DNA of 56,141 nucleotides from an uncultured Phycisphaeraceae bacterium (GCA_964448185.1 CAYUVO010000004.1:1-56141), one strand, 5' to 3'. Positions 17,969 through 33,292 are shown, numbered from the stretch's first letter. Notes: generated by a model from the sequence alone, not told the origin. Made by a program: numbers and translations.

Positions 17969-19069
17969 TCACTCAACGGCTTCTGGGCTCGCAACGCATA
18001 CCCGCGACAGCACGCCCTCCCAGCGGTCCGCCCAAGCCTCTGCGCCGTAGGGGCCTGCCAGAGCCCGTGAACGCCTGCCCAGCTCGGGGGCGATCGCTCG
18101 GCGGTCGTGAATCCATCGCAACGCTTCGGCCAGCGCACCGGCATCGTCCGTGGGAGTGACCACGCCGTTGTAGTAGGTGCGCACCACATCGAGATGGGCG
18201 CTGCACGCCTCGGTACACACGATGGGCAAACCCGCAAACCCGGCTTCGGCGAGCACCGTTCCCCAAGGCTCATACCGGCTTGATATCACCATCGCACCGC
18301 TCTGGGCCATGATGCCCGGGAGCTCGTCGGGCTGGGTAAACCCGCGATCAGTGTGGCCTTCGAGTCCCTCGAATCGACGGGATTCCTCGCCCTTGCCACA
18401 GGTGGTCAGCGTCCAAGGGGTCTGTCCATCGCGTTGGCATCGGTCGCGGTACCGCTGGTAGGCATCGACGAGCACATCGAGTCCTTTGACCGCTGCGTAT
18501 CGGCCTACATAGAGAAAGTTTGCGGGCCACTGGTCGAGCGAAGCGCGCTGGGCGATGGCGGTCTCGAACGCGGCGCCGTCGACGCTGTAGACGCCACGGG
18601 TAAGGATTGATTCTGAGAAGCCGAGGGTTTGTGCGAGGCGGTGGGTGCGTTCACCCGCGACGACGCAGTGGTCGAAGCGTTTGAAGTAGGAGCGTTTGGC
18701 CACGCCTCCGAGCCGCTGGCGGATGGTGCCCGAGAAGGGCGTGTCCATGGTCATGATGAACTTGGCCGAGGCCAGCGCGGGGTCTTGGGCGACGGTCGGG
18801 TAGCTGGGCGAACCCCAGCCACAGAGCACGACGACGTCTGGTTTTTGGTCTCGGACGATCTTTGAGAGGCGTTCGGGGTCGTCCATCTGGGCTTGAGTGA
18901 GCAGTTCGCAGTCGATGCCGTCCATGATGCCGGTGGTGAACTCGACCGCCGAGCCGCTCTCGGGTCTGCGTGCGACCACGAAGACCTCGACCCCGTCGCG
19001 CTGGGAGAGGGCTCGCCAGCACGCAGCCATATATCCCGACATCATCTGCCAACAAAAAACAACACGCAT
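17969..19069 (-). CDS. Glycosyltransferase family 4 (GT-B)
   Basis: MRVVFCWQ start and C-terminal SRYEPWGTVLAEAGFAGLPIVCTEA (E-x7-E region). Confidence 0.8.
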   Translation of the reverse strand: MRVVFCWQMMSGYMAACWRALSQRDGVEVFVVARRPESGSAVEFTTGIMDGIDCELLTQAQMDDPERLSKIVRDQKPDVVVLCGWGSPSYPTVAQDPALASAKFIMTMDTPFSGTIRQRLGGVAKRSYFKRFDHCVVAGERTHRLAQTLGFSESILTRGVYSVDGAAFETAIAQRASLDQWPANFLYVGRYAAVKGLDVLVDAYQRYRDRCQRDGQTPWTLTTCGKGEESRRFEGLEGHTDRGFTQPDELPGIMAQSGAMVISSRYEPWGTVLAEAGFAGLPIVCTEACSAHLDVVRTYYNGVVTPTDDAGALAEALRWIHDRRAIAPELGRRSRALAGPYGAEAWADRWEGVLSRVCVASPEAVE

Positions 19070-19303
19070 AGGAGCGACGATAGGGGACTCTTCTGATGCG
19101 TGTCTTCATGGCCAACGAGCAACATGTGCGCTATCAGGGTGCCGACGGCGGATAAATAACCCCTGTGTACCGAGCTTGAAGGACAAAACCTTATAAAAAC
19201 CTCCGCTTTGGTGGTTATTGGTGTCCGATAGGTCACGCTGAAGATGCTGGGTGCTCTTGGAGTGCCATATTTGTGGGCGGACGAAATGAAGAGGGGATAT
19301 CTC

Positions 19304-19930
19304 ATGCGTCGAACTGCTGCTCTTACGTTACTGCTTGCGGGTGCTCTGCCCGCAGCTGCCGGGCCCACTGTCGTGCTCTTTGAGAGCTTCGAGAGCCTGT
19401 CCACCGACAATTTCTACACCGTCATGGGTGGCGGCCAGATCGTCACCGATGCAGCGACTTGGACCGTGGGTGAAACCTCGATCGATATCGTCGGAACGTA
19501 CGGAATTCAGGCTCCCAAGGTGATCGCAAGCGATGGCGACATCGTTCTCGACATCAACGGCTCGCCCGGACCAGGCTCGATCGAAACCCTCGTCACGCTC
19601 GATGAAGGCAGTCAGTACGAGCTGAGCTTCGAGTATGGCCATTTGCTGATCTCCGACTGGGCGACCATGCTCGTCGAGGTGTTCGGCGATGATGACAACG
19701 TGCTGTTGTCTTGGGAAGTCTTCCACCAGGGTGGCGAGACCTCGACCTTCAGCCAGACGTTTTTGGCCGACAGCACCGCTGCCACGCTCAAGTTCACCGG
19801 TCTTGATGCCACCAACATCAACGGCGGCGTGACGATCGATGCGATCCAGATCGTGGGCGTTATTCCGACCCCTGCAGCGGCCTCGTTGCTGGGTGTTGCT
19901 GGCCTCGCCGGTCTGCGTCGCCGCCGCTGA
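19304..19930 (+). CDS. Secreted protein with PEP-CTERM-like anchor
   Basis: Signal peptide MRRTAALTLLLAGALPAAAG. C-terminus VIPTPAAASLLGVAGLAGLRRRR (P-x-P, TM, Arg cluster). The beta-rich middle resembles DUF642-like sugar-binding folds (weak). Confidence 0.65.
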   Translation: MRRTAALTLLLAGALPAAAGPTVVLFESFESLSTDNFYTVMGGGQIVTDAATWTVGETSIDIVGTYGIQAPKVIASDGDIVLDINGSPGPGSIETLVTLDEGSQYELSFEYGHLLISDWATMLVEVFGDDDNVLLSWEVFHQGGETSTFSQTFLADSTAATLKFTGLDATNINGGVTIDAIQIVGVIPTPAAASLLGVAGLAGLRRRR

Positions 19931-20002
19931 TCGCATCTGATTCGCGGCTGGCCAGACGCCAAGAGACGCTGGTCGATGCAGATAAAAATGTAGAGATCTC
20001 TT

Positions 20003-20039
20003 GTGGCACGGGTTGATCGCCCGTGCCACTTGTTGTTTT
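20003..20039 (+). terminator. Rho-independent terminator
   Basis: Perfect 10-bp stem GTGGCACGGG-ttgatcg-CCCGTGCCAC followed by TTGTTGTTTT. Confidence 0.8.
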
Positions 20040-20221
20040 GGATGGCCGAAGTCAACCTCTTGAATGCGGCGGCGAGGGCGAAAAACGTTGTTCTCGGTCC
20101 AAGAAACAGCGTGGGTACAGATTCCCAACCGAACACATGTGCGCATTTCTTGGTACATACAGGTAGATGGGACACCACGGTGTTGTACCCAGAGGTTCTC
20201 CGCCGATAGGATTAGGTATAC

Positions 20222-20533
20222 ATGAGCACGTTTCGTCGTTCTTTTTTGAGCAGGATCGGATCGGTCGCAGATGTGTGGCTGGACGAGGATCCTGCGCATG
20301 AACGACTCGTGATGAACCTGAAATGGCTCATGAAGAATCGTCCCAGCGATACCGAACTCATCATGTCGGATCTGCGACGCGCCATGCTGCGGAGCGTTGA
20401 TACACTGCCGGACGATGTCCGAACCTCCATCAAACGACAGCTCGAATCCGTCTCCGAATCAGAATACGAACGACGGCTTGGCCTCTCCGAGCCCCTCGCC
20501 GCCCCCGACCAACTCCAGCTCTTCACAGACTGA
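20222..20533 (+). CDS. Hypothetical 103-aa protein (no recognisable domain)
   Basis: ORF in a lower-GC stretch. Its stop lies 22 nt before the DUF2335 gene start. Coding status is inferred from position only. Confidence 0.4.
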   Translation: MSTFRRSFLSRIGSVADVWLDEDPAHERLVMNLKWLMKNRPSDTELIMSDLRRAMLRSVDTLPDDVRTSIKRQLESVSESEYERRLGLSEPLAAPDQLQLFTD

Positions 20534-24103: not shown

Positions 24104-25315
24104 TCAGCGGTCCTTGCGTTGGCGCGTCAATGCGCCCGCGGGAGTGATCGCGTGTTTGCCGAAGCGGTCGATCACCGCGTCCTTGGCCGCGTCGAGCGGC
24201 GACGTCTGCTGTTCTTGCTCAAAGAGCCCGACGCTCTGCGTGCCCGCATCCGCCAAGCGGTCTACACCAAATCCCAGCAACCGCAATGGCTTCCAGCCCT
24301 CGCCCACCCAGCGCGCATACACCCTCTGTGCCACGCTCCAAAGCTCATCGGTGCGACTGCTCGCGGGATTGATGCTTGCCGAGCGAGTGACTGTTTCAAA
24401 GTCCCCGTACCGGAGCTTGAGTGAGATGCCCCCCGCGACCAAGCCCTTTGCTCGCAGCCGATGCGAGACGCTCTCGACATGCCACAACAACAACGCACGT
24501 CCCTGCTCGGGCGTTGCGAGATCTTCGGTCATCGTGCGTTCCTGGCTGATCGATTTGCGTTCGCGGTCCGTGCGCACGGGCCGATCATCAATGCCCATCG
24601 CCTTGCGGTGCGCACTCTCGGCGTGTTCGCCGAAGACCGATCGGAGCTGGTCGAGCGGTGCGATCGCGAGTTCGCCGACGGTGCGCAAGCCGATCGCGCT
24701 GAGCCGGCGCACGCTCGCGGGTCCGAGCCCGGGGATGACCGCAACAGACATCGGCGCAAGGAACGCGGCCTCGCTGCCCGGCTCGACCACCGTGAGCCCA
24801 TCAGGTTTGTCTGCGTCCGAAGCCACCTTGGCGACCATCTTGTTGGTCGCAACGCCGACCGAAACCGTCAGGCCAAGCTCGTGCTTGATGCGTGCGCGGA
24901 TCGCTCGTGCGATCGTCGGACCGTCGCCACACACCGCGTGCGAACCCGTGACGTCTACAAACGCTTCATCCACACTCAACGGCTCAATCACCGGTGAAAA
25001 ATCTCCCAGGATCCCGAACACACGCGACGAGATCTCGCTGTAGCGTGAGAATCGCCCGGGCAGAATGATTGCGTGCGGGCAGCGGCGCAGCGCGATCGCG
25101 GTGGGCATTGCGGACCTGCATCCAAACTTGCGCGCTTCGTAGCTCGCAGCCGCGATAACGCCTCGTTTGCCCGCGCCGCCTACGAGCACGGGCTTGCCAC
25201 GCAATGAAGGATCGTCGAGTTGCTCGACCGAGGCAAAGAACGCGTCCATGTCGGCGTGCAGAATGGTGCGATGCCGGGGGCGATGCGGCGAGAGTTGGAT
25301 CGGTGTGCTGCTCAT
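24104..25315 (-). CDS. dinB: DNA polymerase IV (Y-family)
   Basis: ILHADMDAFFASVEQLDDPSLRGKPVLVGG, SVDEAFVDVTG. The start is 2 nt after the stop of the upstream kinase gene. Confidence 0.9.
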   Translation of the reverse strand: MSSTPIQLSPHRPRHRTILHADMDAFFASVEQLDDPSLRGKPVLVGGAGKRGVIAAASYEARKFGCRSAMPTAIALRRCPHAIILPGRFSRYSEISSRVFGILGDFSPVIEPLSVDEAFVDVTGSHAVCGDGPTIARAIRARIKHELGLTVSVGVATNKMVAKVASDADKPDGLTVVEPGSEAAFLAPMSVAVIPGLGPASVRRLSAIGLRTVGELAIAPLDQLRSVFGEHAESAHRKAMGIDDRPVRTDRERKSISQERTMTEDLATPEQGRALLLWHVESVSHRLRAKGLVAGGISLKLRYGDFETVTRSASINPASSRTDELWSVAQRVYARWVGEGWKPLRLLGFGVDRLADAGTQSVGLFEQEQQTSPLDAAKDAVIDRFGKHAITPAGALTRQRKDR

Positions 25316-25317
25316 GG

Positions 25318-27069
25318 TCAGTGAGCCGAGAACGGGTCGTGGCGATCGGCGGGCGCGTTGGTCGTCGCCGACGGATCGGCAGCGGAATCCGCGGGCAGCG
25401 TGATCGTAAAGATCGTCCCCGTGTTCTCGCCAGAGCTCTCGACTTTGATTCGGCCACGGTGTTCCTCGACGATGCGTTTGGTGACCGCGAGTCCGAGCCC
25501 GGTGCCCCGCGTGCCCTTGGTCGAAAAGAACGGCTCAAAGATCCGCCGCTGAATCTCCGTCGGGATACCAGGTCCGTTATCAATCACCTGAATATCCGCA
25601 TACGTCGCACCTTCGCCCAAAAGAGGATCGGTTACGCGGAACATCGTGCGGATCGTCACGGCGCCGTGCTGATCGCCAGCCGCTTCGATCGCGTTGCCCA
25701 CAAGATTCATCATCGCCTGGTGCATCAAGCTCGCGTCGATCGGGATCGGGGGCATCTCGCTGTCGTAGTCAACAATCAACGCGACCTGCTTGCTGGTCGC
25801 CAGTCCTTCGAGCAGCGCCACGCAGTCATTGATCACGCTGTGAACAGGCTGCAACTCCAGCTCGATCGAACGCTCGCGGCTAAACGCCAGCATGTTGAGC
25901 GTCAGCCCCATGATCCGATCCAGATTCCGCTTGAGAATGGGCCAGCCGTTGGCTGCGACTTCGAGATCACGCTTGCGCAAGCCCATCTCGACGACATCCG
26001 CGCCGCCACGCAACCCTTGAAGAATGTTCTTGATCGAATGGCTCAGCGAAGCAACCGTCTGCCCGATCGTCACCAGGCGTTCGGTCTGCAACCGTTCGCC
26101 GTAGCGGTCCGCATTGGCGAGCGCAAGACCCGTGTGCTGACCGATCGCGTTCATGAGTGCGAGCTGTTGCTCGGTGAACGTGTAGTTTGCGAGGGATGAA
26201 TCGATCGAGATCGCGCCGAACACACGGTCGCGGAACCGGATGGGCGAGCAGATCGCGCTGCGGATGCCGTAGCCTTGTACGCTGTCGCCCTTGGCGAATC
26301 GTCGATCGCTCATCGCGTTCGTGCTCAGCACGCCCTCGGAGCGGTTGACCACATGCTGCAGGATGGTCTTGGAAACTCCGATCGAGGGGACTTCTTTTTC
26401 GCCCGCCTTGGTGCTCGTTGAGGTGAGCGTTGCGGGTTTGCTCCCGGGCATGACGAACGTCTGGCCCATCGAGCCGTCCGCGTTGAGCAGCACGATCACG
26501 CCCCGCTCGGGCTTGAACTCCTCGCGCACCAACAACAACGCCTCCTCCAACAACTGCTCGCGGTCGAGCAACTGCGTGGTCAGCGTCGTGAGCTGATAGA
26601 TCACCCGCAGGTGGTCCACCGCTGCCGCGGTCGGCTCGGGCTCGGAAAGCACCATCGAATCATCGTTCGACGGCATCGCTCGCTCGATATCAAAGTCTAC
26701 GAACTCCTCATCGAGCAGCCGAACCACCGACTCGCCCGAGGCGCTGTCTTCATCGCCGAACGCCAAGACCGAACCGCCCACGCGGATCTGATCGCCCGGG
26801 TGCAGCCGCCTGCGTCCGGTGATCTTGGTGCCGTTGAGATAGGTTCCGTTCTGGCTCGAAAGATCGCGGAGATACCACGCCCCGTCGTCGGGGGTCAACT
26901 CGGCATGACGCCTGCTCACGGTGTCGTCGTTGATGGGGAGCGACTCGCTCGACCGCCCGATGAGCTGCGGCTCGTTCGCCGGCAAGCGGAACGCCCGTCC
27001 CTTGTTAGGCCCCTGAATGATCGTGAGAATCAGCACAGTTACACAATACCCGAGAGAGGGGCGAGTCAT
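25318..27069 (-). CDS. FHA-GAF sensor histidine kinase
   Basis: N-terminal FHA (QLIGRSSESLPINDDTVSRRHAEL..LRDLSSQNGTYLNG), central GAF, H-box SLSHSIKNILQGL, N-box NLVGNAIEA, G-boxes DNGPGIP and GTGLGLAV. The ATG 27069 shares one base with the fic stop. An alternative GTG lies 33 nt downstream. Confidence 0.85.
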   Translation of the reverse strand: MTRPSLGYCVTVLILTIIQGPNKGRAFRLPANEPQLIGRSSESLPINDDTVSRRHAELTPDDGAWYLRDLSSQNGTYLNGTKITGRRRLHPGDQIRVGGSVLAFGDEDSASGESVVRLLDEEFVDFDIERAMPSNDDSMVLSEPEPTAAAVDHLRVIYQLTTLTTQLLDREQLLEEALLLVREEFKPERGVIVLLNADGSMGQTFVMPGSKPATLTSTSTKAGEKEVPSIGVSKTILQHVVNRSEGVLSTNAMSDRRFAKGDSVQGYGIRSAICSPIRFRDRVFGAISIDSSLANYTFTEQQLALMNAIGQHTGLALANADRYGERLQTERLVTIGQTVASLSHSIKNILQGLRGGADVVEMGLRKRDLEVAANGWPILKRNLDRIMGLTLNMLAFSRERSIELELQPVHSVINDCVALLEGLATSKQVALIVDYDSEMPPIPIDASLMHQAMMNLVGNAIEAAGDQHGAVTIRTMFRVTDPLLGEGATYADIQVIDNGPGIPTEIQRRIFEPFFSTKGTRGTGLGLAVTKRIVEEHRGRIKVESSGENTGTIFTITLPADSAADPSATTNAPADRHDPFSAH

Positions 27070-28400
27070 CAATGTTTTGGCGATGGATCACATGTAGTGA
27101 AGACATACTTATTCCCGACTTGCTGGCGACGAAGATATCCCATTGTCTCGAGATGGAGCAAGTCTGAACGAGCGGTTCCATACGCGATGCCGTAGATAGC
27201 CTGATAGATTTCAATCGTCCATTCGTGATCCGGGCGTTCCGTGGACTCAAGGAGAAAGACCCGTTGCCGGTCGTTCATGTTCTCTTGGGCGAACACGCGT
27301 CTTGCTTCGAGAGTGTCTTTCCGCTTTCGGGTGAGATACTCGGTGAGTTCACCACGGGCCATCGATATGAGCCTTGCGGAATAGACTAGAAAATAGGTCA
27401 GGTCAAACTCATCGGTTTCAACATACTCAAATGCGAGCTGGTACTTGGCCGGCCCGCGAAGGATGAGCCGAGACAGCGGCAGGTACTCGAACATCCAATA
27501 TCCAGAGCGGTGCATCAGCCAATAAAACAAAAGCCGTGCGGTTCGGCCGTTCCCGTCGCAGAATGGATGGTCGTATGCGAGTTGGAAGTGTAGTACGCAA
27601 GCACGCAGTACAGGGTGGATGAACGGCTCCGCATGTCGCGCATCTTCGTTGGCGAACGCACAGAGCTTCTCCAGCCTTGGTGAAAGAGTCGATGCGTGTG
27701 GCGGCTCATGAAGAACCTCTCCGTAGGGATCTTCTACAACAACCGGCTCGCTTACCAATCGGAACCGGCCGCATTCGTCTGGATTCTCCAGCGTTCCTTC
27801 GGTGAGCATCCGCTGCATTTCAATCAGCGTCAATGGAGTGAGCGGTTCGTGTTTGTGCTCGCGGATCCACTGGATAGCGCGATAGTTATTGAGGATCATC
27901 CGCTCGTCACGGTTCCTTGGATCCCGCCCTCGACGCAGCATGTCTTTGGCAACTCTGTGAACGGTCGATGCGCCTTCGAGCTGGCTCGAAGCGATTGCCT
28001 CTTCCATAAGAGAACTGACGATATATCGATCGCTCAAGTCTGCTGGAATTCTCTCTTCGCCATCAAGTGCAAGTCGCCCCGCGAGTTGCTGGTCAACAAG
28101 CATCAGTTCACGCTGTACGAGATCAGGCACCGTGTACTGGAGAGGTTCCCCTTGGTTGCTTGTGAACGGCAAGTGCTGATTGCGAAACGATCTTCCAAGC
28201 TTGATGGTGAGCCAGAGCAACTCGGGGTCCAGCCCACTGTCACGAGCAATAAACTGGATCTTGTGCCAATGGCGGTAGGCTTTGTTCGCCTCACGAGCGG
28301 CGCTTTGATACTCAGGGTTTTCGAGCGTTTGCCCGACAACTTCAGCGCCGCGCCGAGTCCAGATATCAAGCAAGTTAGGGGAGGAGTCGATTTTTGCCAA
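27069..28400 (-). CDS. Fic-family protein, class II (intramolecular inhibitory helix), with C-terminal winged-helix-like domain
   Basis: Canonical HPFCDGNGRTAR (27534-27569). Inhibitory (S/T)xxxE(G/N) = SSQLEG (27972-27989). C-terminal GIAYGTARSDLLHLETMGYLRRQQVGNKYVF is wHTH-like. TTG start. GC is about 47-50%. Confidence 0.85.
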   Translation of the reverse strand: MAKIDSSPNLLDIWTRRGAEVVGQTLENPEYQSAAREANKAYRHWHKIQFIARDSGLDPELLWLTIKLGRSFRNQHLPFTSNQGEPLQYTVPDLVQRELMLVDQQLAGRLALDGEERIPADLSDRYIVSSLMEEAIASSQLEGASTVHRVAKDMLRRGRDPRNRDERMILNNYRAIQWIREHKHEPLTPLTLIEMQRMLTEGTLENPDECGRFRLVSEPVVVEDPYGEVLHEPPHASTLSPRLEKLCAFANEDARHAEPFIHPVLRACVLHFQLAYDHPFCDGNGRTARLLFYWLMHRSGYWMFEYLPLSRLILRGPAKYQLAFEYVETDEFDLTYFLVYSARLISMARGELTEYLTRKRKDTLEARRVFAQENMNDRQRVFLLESTERPDHEWTIEIYQAIYGIAYGTARSDLLHLETMGYLRRQQVGNKYVFTTCDPSPKH

Positions 28401-28419
28401 AGGGTGCTCTCAATAAACG

Positions 28420-28488
28420 ACACTCAATGATAGTGTTTTGCGAGGGGCGTGTCTATCAATTTGATAGACATTGATAGTAAATTGATAG
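28420..28488. promoter_or_regulatory. Iteron/operator array upstream of fic
   Basis: Perfect 19-bp palindrome GTCTATCAA-T-TTGATAGAC (28451-28469). TTGATAG direct repeats start at 28461, 28471 and 28482 (10-11 bp phasing). A further inverted repeat ACACT-caatgat-AGTGT (28420-28436) contains a degenerate copy. Confidence 0.5.
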
Positions 28489-28551
28489 CACCTACAGAAC
28501 CGTACAAACCGCGACACCACAAGATCTTGTGCCCTGCTCCCCTCCTTCACT

Positions 28552-28624
28552 CCTTGCTCATCGCTCCGATTTCTCCACGCTGGTTGATGCGCTCTTGACA
28601 AGCCCCGAGTGTCAGCGAGGGGGA
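28552..28624 (+). repeat. Interspersed repeat copy A (18-bp CCTTGCTCATCGCTCCGA plus 58-bp core ending AGCCCCGAGTGTCAGCGAGGGGGA)
   Basis: The core 28567-28624 is 51/58 identical to 33235-33292. The 18-mer 28552-28569 is identical to 29326-29343. Confidence 0.85.
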
Positions 28625-28625
28625 G

Positions 28626-29324
28626 CTAAATCGAAAGCCTCTCATGCCAACACAGGGGAACCGGCAGGTCATCCGCCGAAAACTCCATGTGCAACACGCG
28701 CCGACGCGAACCGCCTTGAGACTTTGCCGACGCATGGAGAACGAGAGGTTTCATAAGGGCAACATCGCCTGCCCGAGCAACACAGGTAACCGCTTGGTGC
28801 TCATCCGGCTCAATGCTCAGGTCTTTATGTGATCGCGGCATCACTCGCAAAGGTCCGTTGTTTTCTGGGCAATCGTCCAGATGAAGCCGGGCCGTCACCA
28901 TCGAATCGAGCACTTCGTTTGGCGGACGTACTTGCACGACTCCGTCCTTGATTGACCACGGGCCGAATCCATCGACTTCGTGTCTTTGAGCAACTGCAAT
29001 CGTTGTGTCGCGGTGCCACTGGACAAGCCAGTTTGCTTGAGGCGTTTTGTCAAACAAGATCGCTCGAACAAGCGATGGCTTGCTATCGCATACAGAGAGC
29101 ATGAGCGGAGCAAGGCCGGTTGTTCGTAATACTTCAAGGAGATCAGGGATTACCTCAAATGGCGAACGCAAGCCACCCAGCCTTCGGCCGGTGGGTTGGT
29201 GTGCCTTGTCAGTGAGTTTTCCAAGCAGGTCTAATGTGGATTGGCTGCACACATTCTGCGGCGTAGCGAATCCGTTCAAAGAAAGCTCGGTTGCAAGCGC
29301 CGACACTCGCTCACTCCCCCTCAC
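28626..29324 (-). CDS. Phytanoyl-CoA dioxygenase (PhyH) family Fe(II)/2-oxoglutarate oxygenase
   Basis: WLVQWHRDTT (HxD), LRVMPRSHKD, distal LVLHASAKS. The GTG start overlaps the nuoF stop (GTGA). GC is about 50-53%. Confidence 0.75.
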   Translation of the reverse strand: MRGSERVSALATELSLNGFATPQNVCSQSTLDLLGKLTDKAHQPTGRRLGGLRSPFEVIPDLLEVLRTTGLAPLMLSVCDSKPSLVRAILFDKTPQANWLVQWHRDTTIAVAQRHEVDGFGPWSIKDGVVQVRPPNEVLDSMVTARLHLDDCPENNGPLRVMPRSHKDLSIEPDEHQAVTCVARAGDVALMKPLVLHASAKSQGGSRRRVLHMEFSADDLPVPLCWHERLSI

Positions 29325-30730
29325 CCCTTGCTCATCGCTCCGACGCTCACCGTCACCGGCACCATCGAACGACTCACACGAGCCTCGAACTCATCACGAT
29401 ACTTGTTCATGATCGTTCGCAGAGCCCAGTTGTTGCCGTCGGCGAGGCCGCAGATCGTCGTGCCGGGCATCGAGCCCATCGACGTCGCCACTTCCAGCGC
29501 CAGATCGAGATCCTTGGTCTTGCCGTGGCCCTCTTCGATCCGCGTCATGAGTTGGTAGAGCCACCCCGAGCCCTCGCGGCATGGCGTGCATTGCCCGCAG
29601 CTCTCGTGCTTGAAGAACCGGCTGATGTTCCGGGCCACCGCGACCATGTCCGTGTCCTCGTCGAACACCGTCGGGCAGGCGGTCCCCAAGCCCAGCACGT
29701 TGTACCGACGCCCGATATCAAAGTCGAGTTCGGCATCAAACTGGTCGGGGCCCAGAATCCCCATCGAGATGCCGCCCGCGATCGCGCCCTTGAAGGCTTT
29801 GCCGTTGCGCATCCCGCCGCACAGATCTTCGACGAGCGTTCGCAGCGGAATCCCGAGCTCGCACTCATACACCCCCGGCTTGTTGACGTGACCGCTCACG
29901 CCCATGAGCTTGGTGCCATACGACGGCGGCCCGCCGATCGCCGACTCAACGCCCTGACCCATAAACCACTCAGCGCCGTGCTCAATGATCGTCGGCAGGT
30001 GCATCAGCGTCTCGACGTTGTTGATGATCGTCGGCTTGCCGAACAACCCCTTGATCGCCGGGAACGGAGGCTTGATCCGTGGCCAGCCCCGCTTGCCCTC
30101 GATCGCCTCAAGCAATCCCGTTTCTTCGCCACAGATATAAGCGCCCGCTCCGCGATGCACATAGCAATCCACCTGGAACTGTTCGCCCGCCTCGGCAGAC
30201 AACTGCACACCCTTGGGGCCGAAGATGCCCTTGTCGTAGGCTTCTTTGAGTGCTTGTTCGAGGACGTGTGCCTGGTGGTGGTATTCGCCGCGGATGAAGA
30301 TGTACGCCTTGTTGAGTTTGCAGGCGTGGCAGCAGATCGCGATGCCCTCGAACAGGCCGTGCGGATCGAAATCCATCAGCAGCCGATCCTTGAACGTGCC
30401 CGGTTCGGATTCGTCAGCATTGATCGCAAGATACCGCTCGGCCCCCGGCTCGCCGGGTAACTTGCCATCGGGCACCGGCGGCAGGAACGTCCACTTGAGC
30501 CCCGTCGGAAAACCCGCTCCGCCACGGCCACGCAGCACCGACTTCTTGACCTCGGCCGTCACGTCTTCGGGCTTCATCGCCAGCGTCTTGCGGAGGCTTT
30601 CGTACCCGCCGGTCTTGACGTATTCGTCATACCACACGGTGTGCCGATCGGCGAACTCCCCAAAGGGAGGTGTCGGGACTCGCCGCAGGAGCCCGTGTTC
30701 AGGGGTGTCGGTGTAGCTGGCTTTGCCCAC
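29321..30730 (-). CDS. nuoF: NADH:quinone oxidoreductase subunit F-type flavoprotein
   Basis: GRGGAGFPTGLKW (FMN/NADH site) and ESCGQCTPCREG (4Fe-4S). No nuoE or nuoG neighbours. Confidence 0.85.
   Translation of the reverse strand: MGKASYTDTPEHGLLRRVPTPPFGEFADRHTVWYDEYVKTGGYESLRKTLAMKPEDVTAEVKKSVLRGRGGAGFPTGLKWTFLPPVPDGKLPGEPGAERYLAINADESEPGTFKDRLLMDFDPHGLFEGIAICCHACKLNKAYIFIRGEYHHQAHVLEQALKEAYDKGIFGPKGVQLSAEAGEQFQVDCYVHRGAGAYICGEETGLLEAIEGKRGWPRIKPPFPAIKGLFGKPTIINNVETLMHLPTIIEHGAEWFMGQGVESAIGGPPSYGTKLMGVSGHVNKPGVYECELGIPLRTLVEDLCGGMRNGKAFKGAIAGGISMGILGPDQFDAELDFDIGRRYNVLGLGTACPTVFDEDTDMVAVARNISRFFKHESCGQCTPCREGSGWLYQLMTRIEEGHGKTKDLDLALEVATSMGSMPGTTICGLADGNNWALRTIMNKYRDEFEARVSRSMVPVTVSVGAMSKG
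29326..29343 (+). repeat. 18-bp direct repeat partner (CCTTGCTCATCGCTCCGA)
   Basis: Identical to 28552-28569. It lies inside the last codons of nuoF. Confidence 0.85.
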
Positions 30731-30968
30731 AATGGCCTCCGATACTCAACTCGCGTTGCTCAAACAGCAGAACTCTAGAAAGCCCGTACAAATACAGATC
30801 GGCAGCAAGGCCGGCTCATAGCACGAGGTGATTCTAGCGGCTCACGGCCGCGGTGCCCGGCGGCCTCGAATCAGGAATCTCACGCAATGCGCCCGCAGAG
30901 TCCCAGATCCGTTGGCCTTGGCCCCAACCGCGTGGTAAATAAGAGGTAGAGGTGCGTTGATTCGGGCT

Positions 30969-30988
30969 CCCCGTCCCCCCCCGTCCCC
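30969..30988 (+). repeat. C4-GT-C8-GT-C4 element (copy 1)
   Basis: CCCCGTCCCCCCCCGTCCCC, 67 nt upstream of the peroxidase ATG. It is identical to the reverse complement of 52735-52754. Confidence 0.9.
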
Positions 30989-31055
30989 CGCACCCTGAAC
31001 AAGAGAGAGCCAGAGAGAACTCACAGAGAATCCAATACCCAAGGAGAGTGGTGGC

Positions 31056-32645
31056 ATGCTCAGCACAAGAGCGATGGTGGCAATCGTCGGTACCGCAATG
31101 GTCTGCACCGCAGCGAACGCACAGACCTGGAGAACCATCGACGGCTCTTCCAACAACCTCCTCAACCCCACCCTCGGTGCCAACGGCACGCTGACTATCC
31201 GTAACGCCGCCGCCCAATACGCCGACGGCCTCGGAAGCCCGATGATCCGCAGCTCGCCCAGAGCCGTCTCCAACTCGATGGGCACACAAACCGCCAGCGG
31301 CAGCACCCGTGGCCTCTCAAGCATGTTCGTCCAATGGGGACAGTTCATCGACCACGACTTCTCGCTGGCCCTCGAAGGCAACTCCGAAACCCTCACCATC
31401 GACGTGCCCATGGGCGACCCCTTCTTCGATCCGGGATCGACGGGCACCCAAACCATGACGATGAACCGCTCGCAGTTCTCTCAAGGCGTCACCGCGCCCC
31501 GCCAGTTCGCCAACTCCATCACCCACTTCCTCGACGGCTCGGGCGTCTACGGCTCAAACACCACCCGCGCCAACGCCCTCCGCAGCTTCAACGGTGGACG
31601 CATGGCCACGTCAGCGGGCAACCTCATGCCCCGCAACACCGGCGGGCTTGAAAACGCCGGCGGCCCAAGCCCAGACCTCTTCCTCGCAGGCGACATCAGA
31701 TCCAACGAACAATCAGGGCTCACCGCAACTCACACCATGTTCGTCCGTGAGCACAACCGCTGGGCCGATCGCATCAGCGCCGAGCAGCCCGCGTGGGACG
31801 ACGAGAGGGTCTACCAGACCGCACGCAAAATCGTCGGTGCCGAGATTCAGAAGATCACCTACGAAGAGTGGCTCCCGTCGCTGGGCATCAACCTCGACGA
31901 GTATCAGGGCTACGACGAGAACGTCGACCCGAGCATCTCCATCGAGTTCTCCACCACCGCCTTCCGTTTCGGGCACACCATGCTCAACGAAACCATGCCC
32001 ATGTTCAACGCCCAAGGCGAACGCACGGGTGAGCTGGGACTCCGCGACGCTTTCTTCAATCCGTCGGTCTTCGATAACCCGTCAGCGGTCGACGAAATTC
32101 TCGCAGGCATGACCCGCAATGAGGCCGAAACGCTCGATACACAGGTCATCGACGGCGTCCGTAACTTCCTCTTCGGCAACCCCGGTGAAGGCGGGCTCGA
32201 CCTCATGAGCCTCAACCTCATGCGAGGACGCGATCACGGCATCGGCGATTACAACGCCCTCCGCGTCGCCTATGGCCTCGATGAATCCAACCTCATCATG
32301 GACTTTCCGGGCATGGCAGACATGTACTCCTCCAACGACGTCGATGCATGGATCGGCATGATGGCCGAGCTCGAAATGCTCGACGCGATCGAGGGCTCGC
32401 TCTTTGAAGCGATCATGATCGACCAGTTTGCGCGCATGCGTGATGGCGATCGGTTCTTCTATCTCAACGACCCGGACCTGCTGCCGTGGCTCTCGGAGAT
32501 CCAAGGGCTCACGCTCGGCGACCTGATGCAGTTCAACCTCGATACCGGGCCGATGCAGTCGAACGTCTTCTTCGTGCCCGCACCGGGCGTCGGCATCGTC
32601 GCGTTCGCAGGCCTGGGCATGTTGGCACGTCGTCGCCGAGTTTGA
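31056..32645 (+). CDS. Animal-type haem peroxidase family protein with PEP-CTERM-like anchor
   Basis: Signal peptide. DGSSNNLLNPTLG, QWGQFIDHDFSL (distal His), TAFRFGHTML (proximal His). C-terminus VPAPGVGIVAFAGLGMLARRRRV. AAGGAG RBS. Confidence 0.8.
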   Translation: MLSTRAMVAIVGTAMVCTAANAQTWRTIDGSSNNLLNPTLGANGTLTIRNAAAQYADGLGSPMIRSSPRAVSNSMGTQTASGSTRGLSSMFVQWGQFIDHDFSLALEGNSETLTIDVPMGDPFFDPGSTGTQTMTMNRSQFSQGVTAPRQFANSITHFLDGSGVYGSNTTRANALRSFNGGRMATSAGNLMPRNTGGLENAGGPSPDLFLAGDIRSNEQSGLTATHTMFVREHNRWADRISAEQPAWDDERVYQTARKIVGAEIQKITYEEWLPSLGINLDEYQGYDENVDPSISIEFSTTAFRFGHTMLNETMPMFNAQGERTGELGLRDAFFNPSVFDNPSAVDEILAGMTRNEAETLDTQVIDGVRNFLFGNPGEGGLDLMSLNLMRGRDHGIGDYNALRVAYGLDESNLIMDFPGMADMYSSNDVDAWIGMMAELEMLDAIEGSLFEAIMIDQFARMRDGDRFFYLNDPDLLPWLSEIQGLTLGDLMQFNLDTGPMQSNVFFVPAPGVGIVAFAGLGMLARRRRV

Positions 32646-33234: not shown

Positions 33235-33292
33235 CGATTTCTCCACGATGCTTCTCGCGATCTTGACAAGCCCCGAGTGTGAGCGAGGGGGA
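33235..33292 (+). repeat. Interspersed repeat copy B (58-bp core)
   Basis: CGATTTCTCCACG..TCTTGACAAGCCCCGAGTGTGAGCGAGGGGGA. It ends 8 nt before the stop codon of the minus-strand M60 gene, as copy A does for phyH. Confidence 0.85.

Follow-up and report, generated by a model that had tools for sequence, protein, structure and literature searches.

The stretch analysed here (the window) comprises 56,141 nucleotides of an uncultured Phycisphaeraceae bacterium (GCA_964448185.1, CAYUVO010000004.1:1-56141). Between nuoF, the gene for the 51-kDa subunit of NADH dehydrogenase, and a histidine kinase gene it carries two genes, both on the minus strand, for a class II Fic AMP-transferase (Fic) and a PhyH-family Fe(II)/2-oxoglutarate (2OG) dioxygenase (PhyH), which are separated by a spacer of 225 bp (28401-28625) (table 1). 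In profile searches both proteins matched the expected Pfam families, Fic with an E-value of 1.7e-17 (64.5 bits against a cut-off of 24, for the open reading frame, ORF, of 443 amino acids) and PhyH with 8e-16 (59.4 bits against a cut-off of 22).

The two genes form a patch of low guanine + cytosine (GC) content. The GC fraction of the segment 27069-29324 is 0.539 compared with 0.619 for the window (standard deviation, sd, of same-size windows 0.019), and it is the minimum of all windows of that size within the stretch. Fic and PhyH are also the two lowest of the 38 likely genes of at least 150 amino acids, both in GC at third codon positions (GC3; 0.588 and 0.554, mean 0.747, sd 0.053) and in codon adaptation index (CAI; 0.549 and 0.500 against 0.676). 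A preliminary description of this DNA had proposed a low-GC islet of two minus-strand genes with a foreign look within its genome, and the sliding GC and codon adaptation profiles agree with it. Its hand counts of GC were right inside the patch (0.467, 0.533 and 0.50), whereas those of the flanks, given as about 65-68%, were only approximate (0.733 and 0.633).

Table 1. Positions of the genes and sequence features discussed in the text, numbered from the first nucleotide of the window
Feature	Position	Strand	Basis or remark
FHA-GAF-HisKA-HATPase histidine kinase	25318..27072	-	Pfam; 3' neighbour of Fic
Possible extra operator-like copy, ATTGATGACTCGCCCCTC	27056..27073	-	Local alignment; spans Fic stop codon and kinase start
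Class II Fic AMP-transferase, 443 amino acids	27069..28400	-	Pfam PF02661
Fic promoter and operator-like array	28427..28488	-	Motif positions, sigma70-like site
26-nt direct repeat, copy 2	28544..28569	-	nuoF 3' end duplicated in the spacer, GAMSKE-stop versus GAMSKG-stop
58-nt interspersed repeat, copy 1	28567..28624	-	Directly 3' of the PhyH stop codon
PhyH-family Fe(II)/2OG dioxygenase, 232 amino acids (longest ORF)	28626..29324	-	PF05721
26-nt direct repeat, copy 1	29318..29343	-	Last 20 nt of nuoF before the stop, stop codon and 3 nt beyond
nuoF, NADH dehydrogenase 51-kDa subunit	29321..30730	-	Complex1_51K 1.7e-41, NADH_4Fe-4S, SLBB (Pfam)
58-nt interspersed repeat, copy 2	33235-33292		Directly 3' of the stop codon of a minus-strand M60 peptidase gene

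The Fic Protein

The active-site core of Fic, HPFCDGNGRTAR (residues 278-289), fits the pattern HxFx(D/E)GNGRxxR, and the inhibitory helix SSQLEG (residues 138-143), which lies N-terminal to the core, fits (S/T)xxxE(G/N). The core is invariant in 32 homologues, as are positions S138, S139, L141, E142 and G143 of the helix; the canonical active site and the intramolecular inhibitory helix that had been read from the sequence are borne out by these positions and their invariance. The TTG start codon lines up with the M-P-R-I starts of the homologues.

In the AlphaFold2 (AF2) model, which has a predicted local distance difference test score (pLDDT) of 89, an N-terminal domain of helices and a hairpin is followed by the Fic core and, at the C terminus, by a predicted winged helix-turn-helix (wHTH) at about residues 377-436, with helices at 377-387, 396-403 and 407-419 and a hairpin at 423-436. 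The best whole-chain Foldseek matches are SoFic (3EQX/3ZCN), a Fic protein of Mycobacterium marinum (7CB8) and CbFic2 of Coxiella (8CIL), and together with the model the SoFic matches support the winged-helix-like tail noted before.

SoFic (Shewanella oneidensis SO_4266) shares the predicted fold over the whole chain (Foldseek E-value 2e-11; template modelling, TM, score 0.56-0.68), although the two sequences are only about 20% identical, and the PADLOC model for SoFic matches residues 124-432 with an E-value of 6.6e-36. Two differences should be pointed out. First, where SoFic has a short dimerisation helix, the Fic protein of the window carries an additional N-terminal domain, conserved and some 105 residues long; second, SoFic is known as a stand-alone defence protein (10.1101/2022.05.11.491447), an anti-phage system, whereas the window's Fic is found in a conserved site after nuoF and not in a defence island. 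Fic and SoFic are distantly related and have the same architecture, to which Fic adds its N-terminal domain; Fic is not an equivalog of SoFic.

The N-terminal domain (residues 1-105, helices and a hairpin) is found throughout the family of proteins of about 440 amino acids, in bacteria and in archaea, and has no match in Pfam or among PDB sequences. Residues 1-118 (about 28047-28400) are confidently modelled as five helices and a beta-hairpin, and carry the conserved motifs YRHW..K..A..GLDPE..W. More than 5,500 homologues of Fic were found, the closest of which are 50-63% identical, 440-450 amino acids long and mainly from Phycisphaerae or Planctomycetota. The protein belongs to the known class II Fic-wHTH group, and is self-inhibited, probably self-repressed and potentially toxic or defensive; class II autoinhibition and the PADLOC match support the self-regulatory look and the toxin-like or anti-phage kinship that had been ascribed to it.

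Promoter-Like Site and Operator-Like Array Upstream of Fic

Both the iteron/palindrome array and the interspersed repeat described earlier are present in the spacer between PhyH and Fic. The only sigma70-like site in 4.4 kb, with the -35 element TAGACA and the -10 element TATCAT (28455..28427), is located here. CTATCAA occurs three times (28482-88, 28471-77 and 28461-67) in a phase of 10-11 bp, and an inverted TTGATAG (28453-59) completes a palindrome of 17 nt, TCTATCAAATTGATAGA (28452-28468), at the end of which lies the -35 element; a further copy, CTATCAT (28427-33), falls on the -10 element. Terminator-like sites are no commoner than in shuffled sequences, with none within the spacer, and an Rfam scan of 26800-31200 gave no match.

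Such a layout has precedents. CccR, a class II Fic protein with a DNA-binding helix-turn-helix (HTH) domain from Yersinia pseudotuberculosis, represses its own gene through palindromes at the -35/-10 elements and AMPylates FtsZ (PMC9755527), and SoFic binds the 100-bp stretch that precedes its own gene, with EF-Tu as the target of its AMPylation (bioRxiv 10.64898/2026.07.09.737422). The array in the window is read as a putative autoregulatory operator of Fic because its layout, placed over the promoter, matches this published autoregulation of CccR and SoFic. The likeness to CccR covers the combination of Fic and DNA-binding domains and the position of the repeats, the -35 element being where the palindrome ends and the -10 element coinciding with a copy of the repeat. 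The operators themselves differ, as that of CccR is one wide palindrome (10 nt-N26-10 nt), whereas the window has three phased direct repeats and a tight palindrome. Furthermore, CccR is an effector secreted by the type VI secretion system, and there is no sign of secretion for the window's Fic.

The same half-site design, with CTATCAA or CTATTGA and often in two sets, is found 5' of Fic in the relatives L164, L004, L165, L118, L167, L093 and L001. In the 200 nt upstream of Fic, repeated 7-mers have a median z of 4.0 (n = 39 members from many phyla), compared with 0.7 for control genes in the same loci (n = 156; p = 8e-11), and operators made of phased repeats and a palindrome appear to be a family-wide feature of Fic across many phyla. 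In the window, the sequence ATTGATGACTCGCCCCTC resembles ATTGATAGACACGCCCCTC, which contains the operator end and the -35 region 5' of Fic, with a marginal score of 12.5 (shuffles 7.6 +/- 1.1, of which 0.4% reach that score); it could be a stray operator half-site or a chance similarity.

The PhyH Protein

The longest ORF gives PhyH 232 amino acids, and the public gene call, which begins with GTG at 29306, gives 226 (P0121). The residues H104, D106, H197 and R208/R209 (H98, D100, H191 and R202/R203 in the numbering of P0121) are invariant across 32 homologues, and the HxD...H triad claimed for this oxygenase is confirmed as H104-x-D106 and H197. The AF2 model (pLDDT 94) matches double-stranded beta-helix (DSBH) proteins, with MysH, TlxI, SnoN/SnoK and FtmOx1, all small-molecule tailoring enzymes, as the top Foldseek matches. 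On its motifs and modelled fold, PhyH is predicted to be a catalytically intact, generic small Fe(II)/2OG dioxygenase. It shares the DSBH fold, the HxD...H triad, conserved Arg residues and a length of about 230-250 amino acids with PF05721 enzymes, namely those just mentioned and ectoine-hydroxylase-like proteins. It differs from them in that its identity to any solved enzyme is at most 19% and its closest orthologues are defined by the position after nuoF; in one relative it is part of an operon with CdsA and an acyltransferase, and not of a natural-product cluster. More than 2,600 homologues were found in many phyla, and PADLOC gave no match to PhyH.

The operon in question is located in L001 (GCA_038748775.1; 7595-10741), where an overlapping run of genes after nuoF encodes a 227-amino acid protein, CdsA, an acyltransferase and, as the last of them, PhyH, which overlaps the acyltransferase gene by 4 nt. 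This run hints at a lipid-related role for the PhyH clade.

Occurrence of Fic and PhyH in Relatives

The preliminary description had regarded Fic and PhyH as a candidate two-gene module, and the distribution of their orthologues does not support this. After nuoF in Phycisphaerae-type contigs, Fic is found without PhyH in eight loci (L004, L084, L118, L164, L165, L166, L168 and L093), and PhyH without Fic in three (L003, L097 and L169). Both follow nuoF in the window and in one other organism (L001/L002), in which they have the same order, PhyH then Fic, and the same orientation, with about 54% identity for both proteins. An unbiased nuoF-anchored sample of 80 loci contained three with Fic, one with PhyH and none with both. 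Among the matches listed by a Fic profile search of genome contigs, which are mostly from distant phyla and useful only as a negative control for linkage to PhyH, all 79 distant loci (L005-L083) lack PhyH within 10 kb of Fic. More distant PhyH homologues (L171 and L172) are near neither nuoF nor Fic. These counts argue that Fic and PhyH are paired no more often than expected from the frequency of each. Because they mostly occur singly, because the distant loci lack the pair altogether and because Fic appears to have a promoter and operator of its own, the two genes are considered independent.

The distant Fic loci have no neighbour in common that clustering could detect, apart from synteny in one actinobacterial group, and their flanks range from housekeeping genes to an occasional integrase, restriction or BREX (bacteriophage exclusion) gene. 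In metagenome-assembled genomes of Solirubrobacterales/Actinomycetes (L012, L013, L020, L024, L025 and L027) a conserved gene of about 330-338 amino acids lies 3' of Fic, mostly with a 4-nt overlap, and may be a lineage-specific operon partner of Fic; conserved genes precede Fic in these loci as well. In L001 an unrelated gene of 392 amino acids begins 13 nt past Fic.

That Fic and PhyH were acquired horizontally as a single conflict or defence module of cooperating proteins, in which the oxygenase would, for example, produce or remove a signal by which Fic is freed from autoinhibition, therefore seems extremely improbable. The conserved order and orientation in L001/L002, the extreme GC3 and CAI of both genes, the PADLOC match of Fic and the presence of its family in about 35 viral or prophage contigs and the position of some family members beside restriction or BREX-type genes are in line with such a module. 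Against it stand, besides the loci that carry either gene alone and the putative promoter and operator of Fic, the absence of a PADLOC match for PhyH, the coupling of PhyH to lipid-synthesis genes in L001, the housekeeping neighbours of the patch and a sequence remnant, described below, that implies separate times of arrival.

The position after nuoF is the regularity that does recur. Among the closest loci examined, the window included, Fic is located after nuoF in 7 of 8 and PhyH, at identities of at least 48%, in 5 of 5, and in the window, L003 and L097 PhyH starts 0-53 nt past the nuoF stop. Little else is conserved around nuoF: in 42 of 75 loci its first downstream gene is a singleton, and among the recurrent ones Fic is the commonest. 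Such adjacency would be expected if nuoF, PhyH and Fic were functionally tied and kept together by selection, with PhyH and/or Fic modifying or responding to the NADH-oxidising module of complex I or the redox state. On the other hand, neither gene is present in 62 of the 73 nuoF relatives with enough flanking sequence, Fic is located elsewhere in L167, a member of the same clade, and Fic has a predicted promoter of its own. No mechanistic precedent was found for the tie, and ancestry retained in a sub-clade explains the pattern equally well, so that we consider it quite unlikely. A more specific version, a selectively maintained trio of nuoF, a PhyH dioxygenase and an autorepressed Fic in one Phycisphaerae clade that would couple post-translational modification (hydroxylation and/or AMPylation) to the same module or redox state, is very doubtful; if true, it would explain why the adjacency survives amid an otherwise scrambled local gene order.

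In the nuoF tree, loci bearing Fic or PhyH are concentrated in the half that contains the window, interspersed with loci that lack both. The pattern of nuoF-Fic and nuoF-PhyH pairs fits ancestry with frequent loss. Because both adjacencies are shared within a Phycisphaerae clade, the nuoF edge of the patch is not a boundary between core and foreign DNA.

Composition and History of the Patch

In relatives the GC3 of Fic and PhyH is mostly inside the local range (z from -1.2 to +0.5), and the low GC of the patch is therefore not intrinsic to these genes. For PhyH, the window deviates by -3.6 sd, compared with about 0 in L001 and L003 and -1.1 in L097. Most likely, the low GC arose when the local alleles were imported from, or replaced by those of, a relative with lower GC.

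Alternatively, nothing was transferred: Fic and PhyH would be accessory genes of low expression that were here from the start, and weak selection on their codons would account for the low GC. In every relative the GC3 of Fic is below that of nuoF, by 0.06-0.22; the Fic allele closest to that of the window, in L164, deviates by -3 sd within its own locus, the only relative to do so; and both ORFs of the window are intact with all conserved residues present. These observations are as expected for permanent residents, but the mostly unremarkable GC3 of the relatives, the PhyH orthologues that are no outliers and the trace of a rearrangement next to PhyH are not, which makes this explanation unlikely.

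The rearrangement is recorded by a duplicate of the nuoF end. The two copies of the 26-nt direct repeat (table 1) are 92% identical with a spacing of 774, and among the 12 loci compared the duplicate is present in the window only (score 21 compared with at most 11.5). Copy 2 sits about 55 nt upstream of the operator-like array, and the real end of nuoF is placed alike in the nuoF-Fic loci L164 and L004. This suggests that 28544-28569 is what remains of an earlier nuoF-Fic junction that was split by the insertion of PhyH, and therefore that PhyH and Fic arrived at different times. An integron-like cassette or another site-specific element that targets the nuoF end was also considered; it is kept merely as a possibility, as there is no recombinase and the duplication is confined to the window.

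With respect to the features of a genomic island, the composition is atypical and the presence in relatives is patchy, there is no integrase, transposase or adjacent tRNA gene, and the 26-nt repeat pair brackets PhyH only. The copies of the 58-nt interspersed repeat are 88% identical (blastn E-value 1e-11). Its 31-nt core, in which the copies differ at one base, occurs twice compared with 0 expected; the repeat forms no stable fold, matches nothing in Rfam and is found in none of the 252 loci examined.

Proposed Roles of the Two Genes

What explanation, then, accommodates both genes? We think it fairly probable that the patch consists of two functionally separate genes in the variable stretch 3' of nuoF of a Phycisphaerae-type planctomycete, a Fic enzyme of the SoFic/CccR/CbFic2 kind and a small PhyH oxygenase. 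Fic would be transcribed from its own promoter in the spacer. Probably as a dimer, it would bind the phased CTATCAA repeats and the palindrome over the -35/-10 elements and thereby repress its own synthesis, while its catalytic site would additionally be held off by the intramolecular Glu142. Once released, Fic may AMPylate a central protein (such as EF-Tu in the case of SoFic or FtsZ in that of CccR) and cause growth arrest, which could serve stress control or abortive anti-phage defence. For PhyH, transcription by read-through from nuoF is probable, and the substrate that it oxidises is most likely a small molecule or a lipid.

As to the history of the locus, this clade would long have carried orthologues of both genes in the 3' flank of nuoF, with patchy losses. 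In the lineage of the window PhyH would have been inserted between nuoF and Fic at the pre-existing junction, by a Campbell-type event at a short homology, which left a 26-nt duplicate of the nuoF end. The low GC3 suggests recombination with a lower-GC relative as the source of the local alleles.

Several observations weigh against this explanation. Operator binding, target and toxicity of Fic are all deduced by analogy, with SoFic about 20% identical, and Fic falls far short of the cut-off of the NCBIfam equivalog for SoFic (NF046030; 39.5 compared with 550 bits); all NCBIfam matches to Fic and PhyH are below threshold. The pair recurs once, in L001, with the same order and orientation, and both of its genes have low GC in the window, because of which a functional link between Fic and PhyH is possible. 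Likewise, the recurrent adjacency to nuoF could reflect a functional tie rather than mere ancestry. The distance matrices of nuoF and Fic, which come close to a star shape (Mantel p = 0.06), are informative for one close pair only and do not separate descent with loss from repeated gain at a hotspot. Finally, the donor of the low-GC alleles was not found.

Borders and Neighbouring Genes

The flush borders described for the patch, a GTGA overlap with nuoF and a TGATG junction with the kinase gene, hold with the longest ORFs, whereas with the public start of PhyH (29306) the gene begins 15 nt past the nuoF stop. For the kinase there are two options, the ATG of TGATG (27069) or GTG 27036, which gives MLILTIIQGP, a typical FHA N-terminus. 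Because it is tied to the longest-ORF starts, the flushness of the borders is uncertain.

The protein encoded by nuoF is 73-83% identical to NuoF of 80 metagenome loci. The synteny of nuoF with the kinase and dinB genes was found in no relative in the collections, where the best nuoF match is 83% identical; downstream of nuoF the relatives have no kinase orthologue, only matches of 25-30%, and no kinase-dinB pair either, and in none of them does the kinase belong to a unit with Fic and PhyH. Nor was an empty site found, as close relatives are lacking. In the window the kinase gene is followed, after a gap of 2 nt, by a gene for a dinB-type translesion polymerase (24104-25315, minus strand).

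As had been stated, there is no integrase or transposase among the neighbouring ORFs tested, and the only tRNA gene is 9 kb off. The locus is not in a defence island: no defence or mobility genes were found nearby, and the neighbours are housekeeping genes. Besides dinB and the kinase gene, the surroundings include genes for a glycosyltransferase, a pilin-like protein, an inositol-phosphatase-family protein, an animal-type haem peroxidase, an M60 peptidase and a LuxR-type regulator. The haem peroxidase gene (31056-32645, plus strand; PF03098, 1.4e-135) is full-length and divergent from nuoF, an arrangement that is also found in L086, L091, L102 and L105. The C-terminal tail of the peroxidase, ...FAGLGMLARRRRV, is hydrophobic and Arg-rich and resembles a PEP-CTERM-type sorting signal. 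A second, milder patch of low GC lies at 18800-20400, with 1-kb windows down to 0.54; it holds the ORFs 19244-19930(+) and 19328-20299(-), which have no Pfam match, and is located beside a GT4 glycosyltransferase gene.

Implications

A new conflict system that combines Fic with an oxygenase would have been remarkable, but finds no support in the comparative evidence. The recurrent placement of Fic and PhyH right after nuoF is a regularity that is as yet unexplained. With respect to the family, the class II Fic-wHTH enzymes, whose biology is only now emerging, gain from the window a well-conserved planctomycete branch of about 440 amino acids that has an additional N-terminal domain, and the operators of phased repeats and palindromes that appear to accompany this family extend what was shown for CccR and SoFic.

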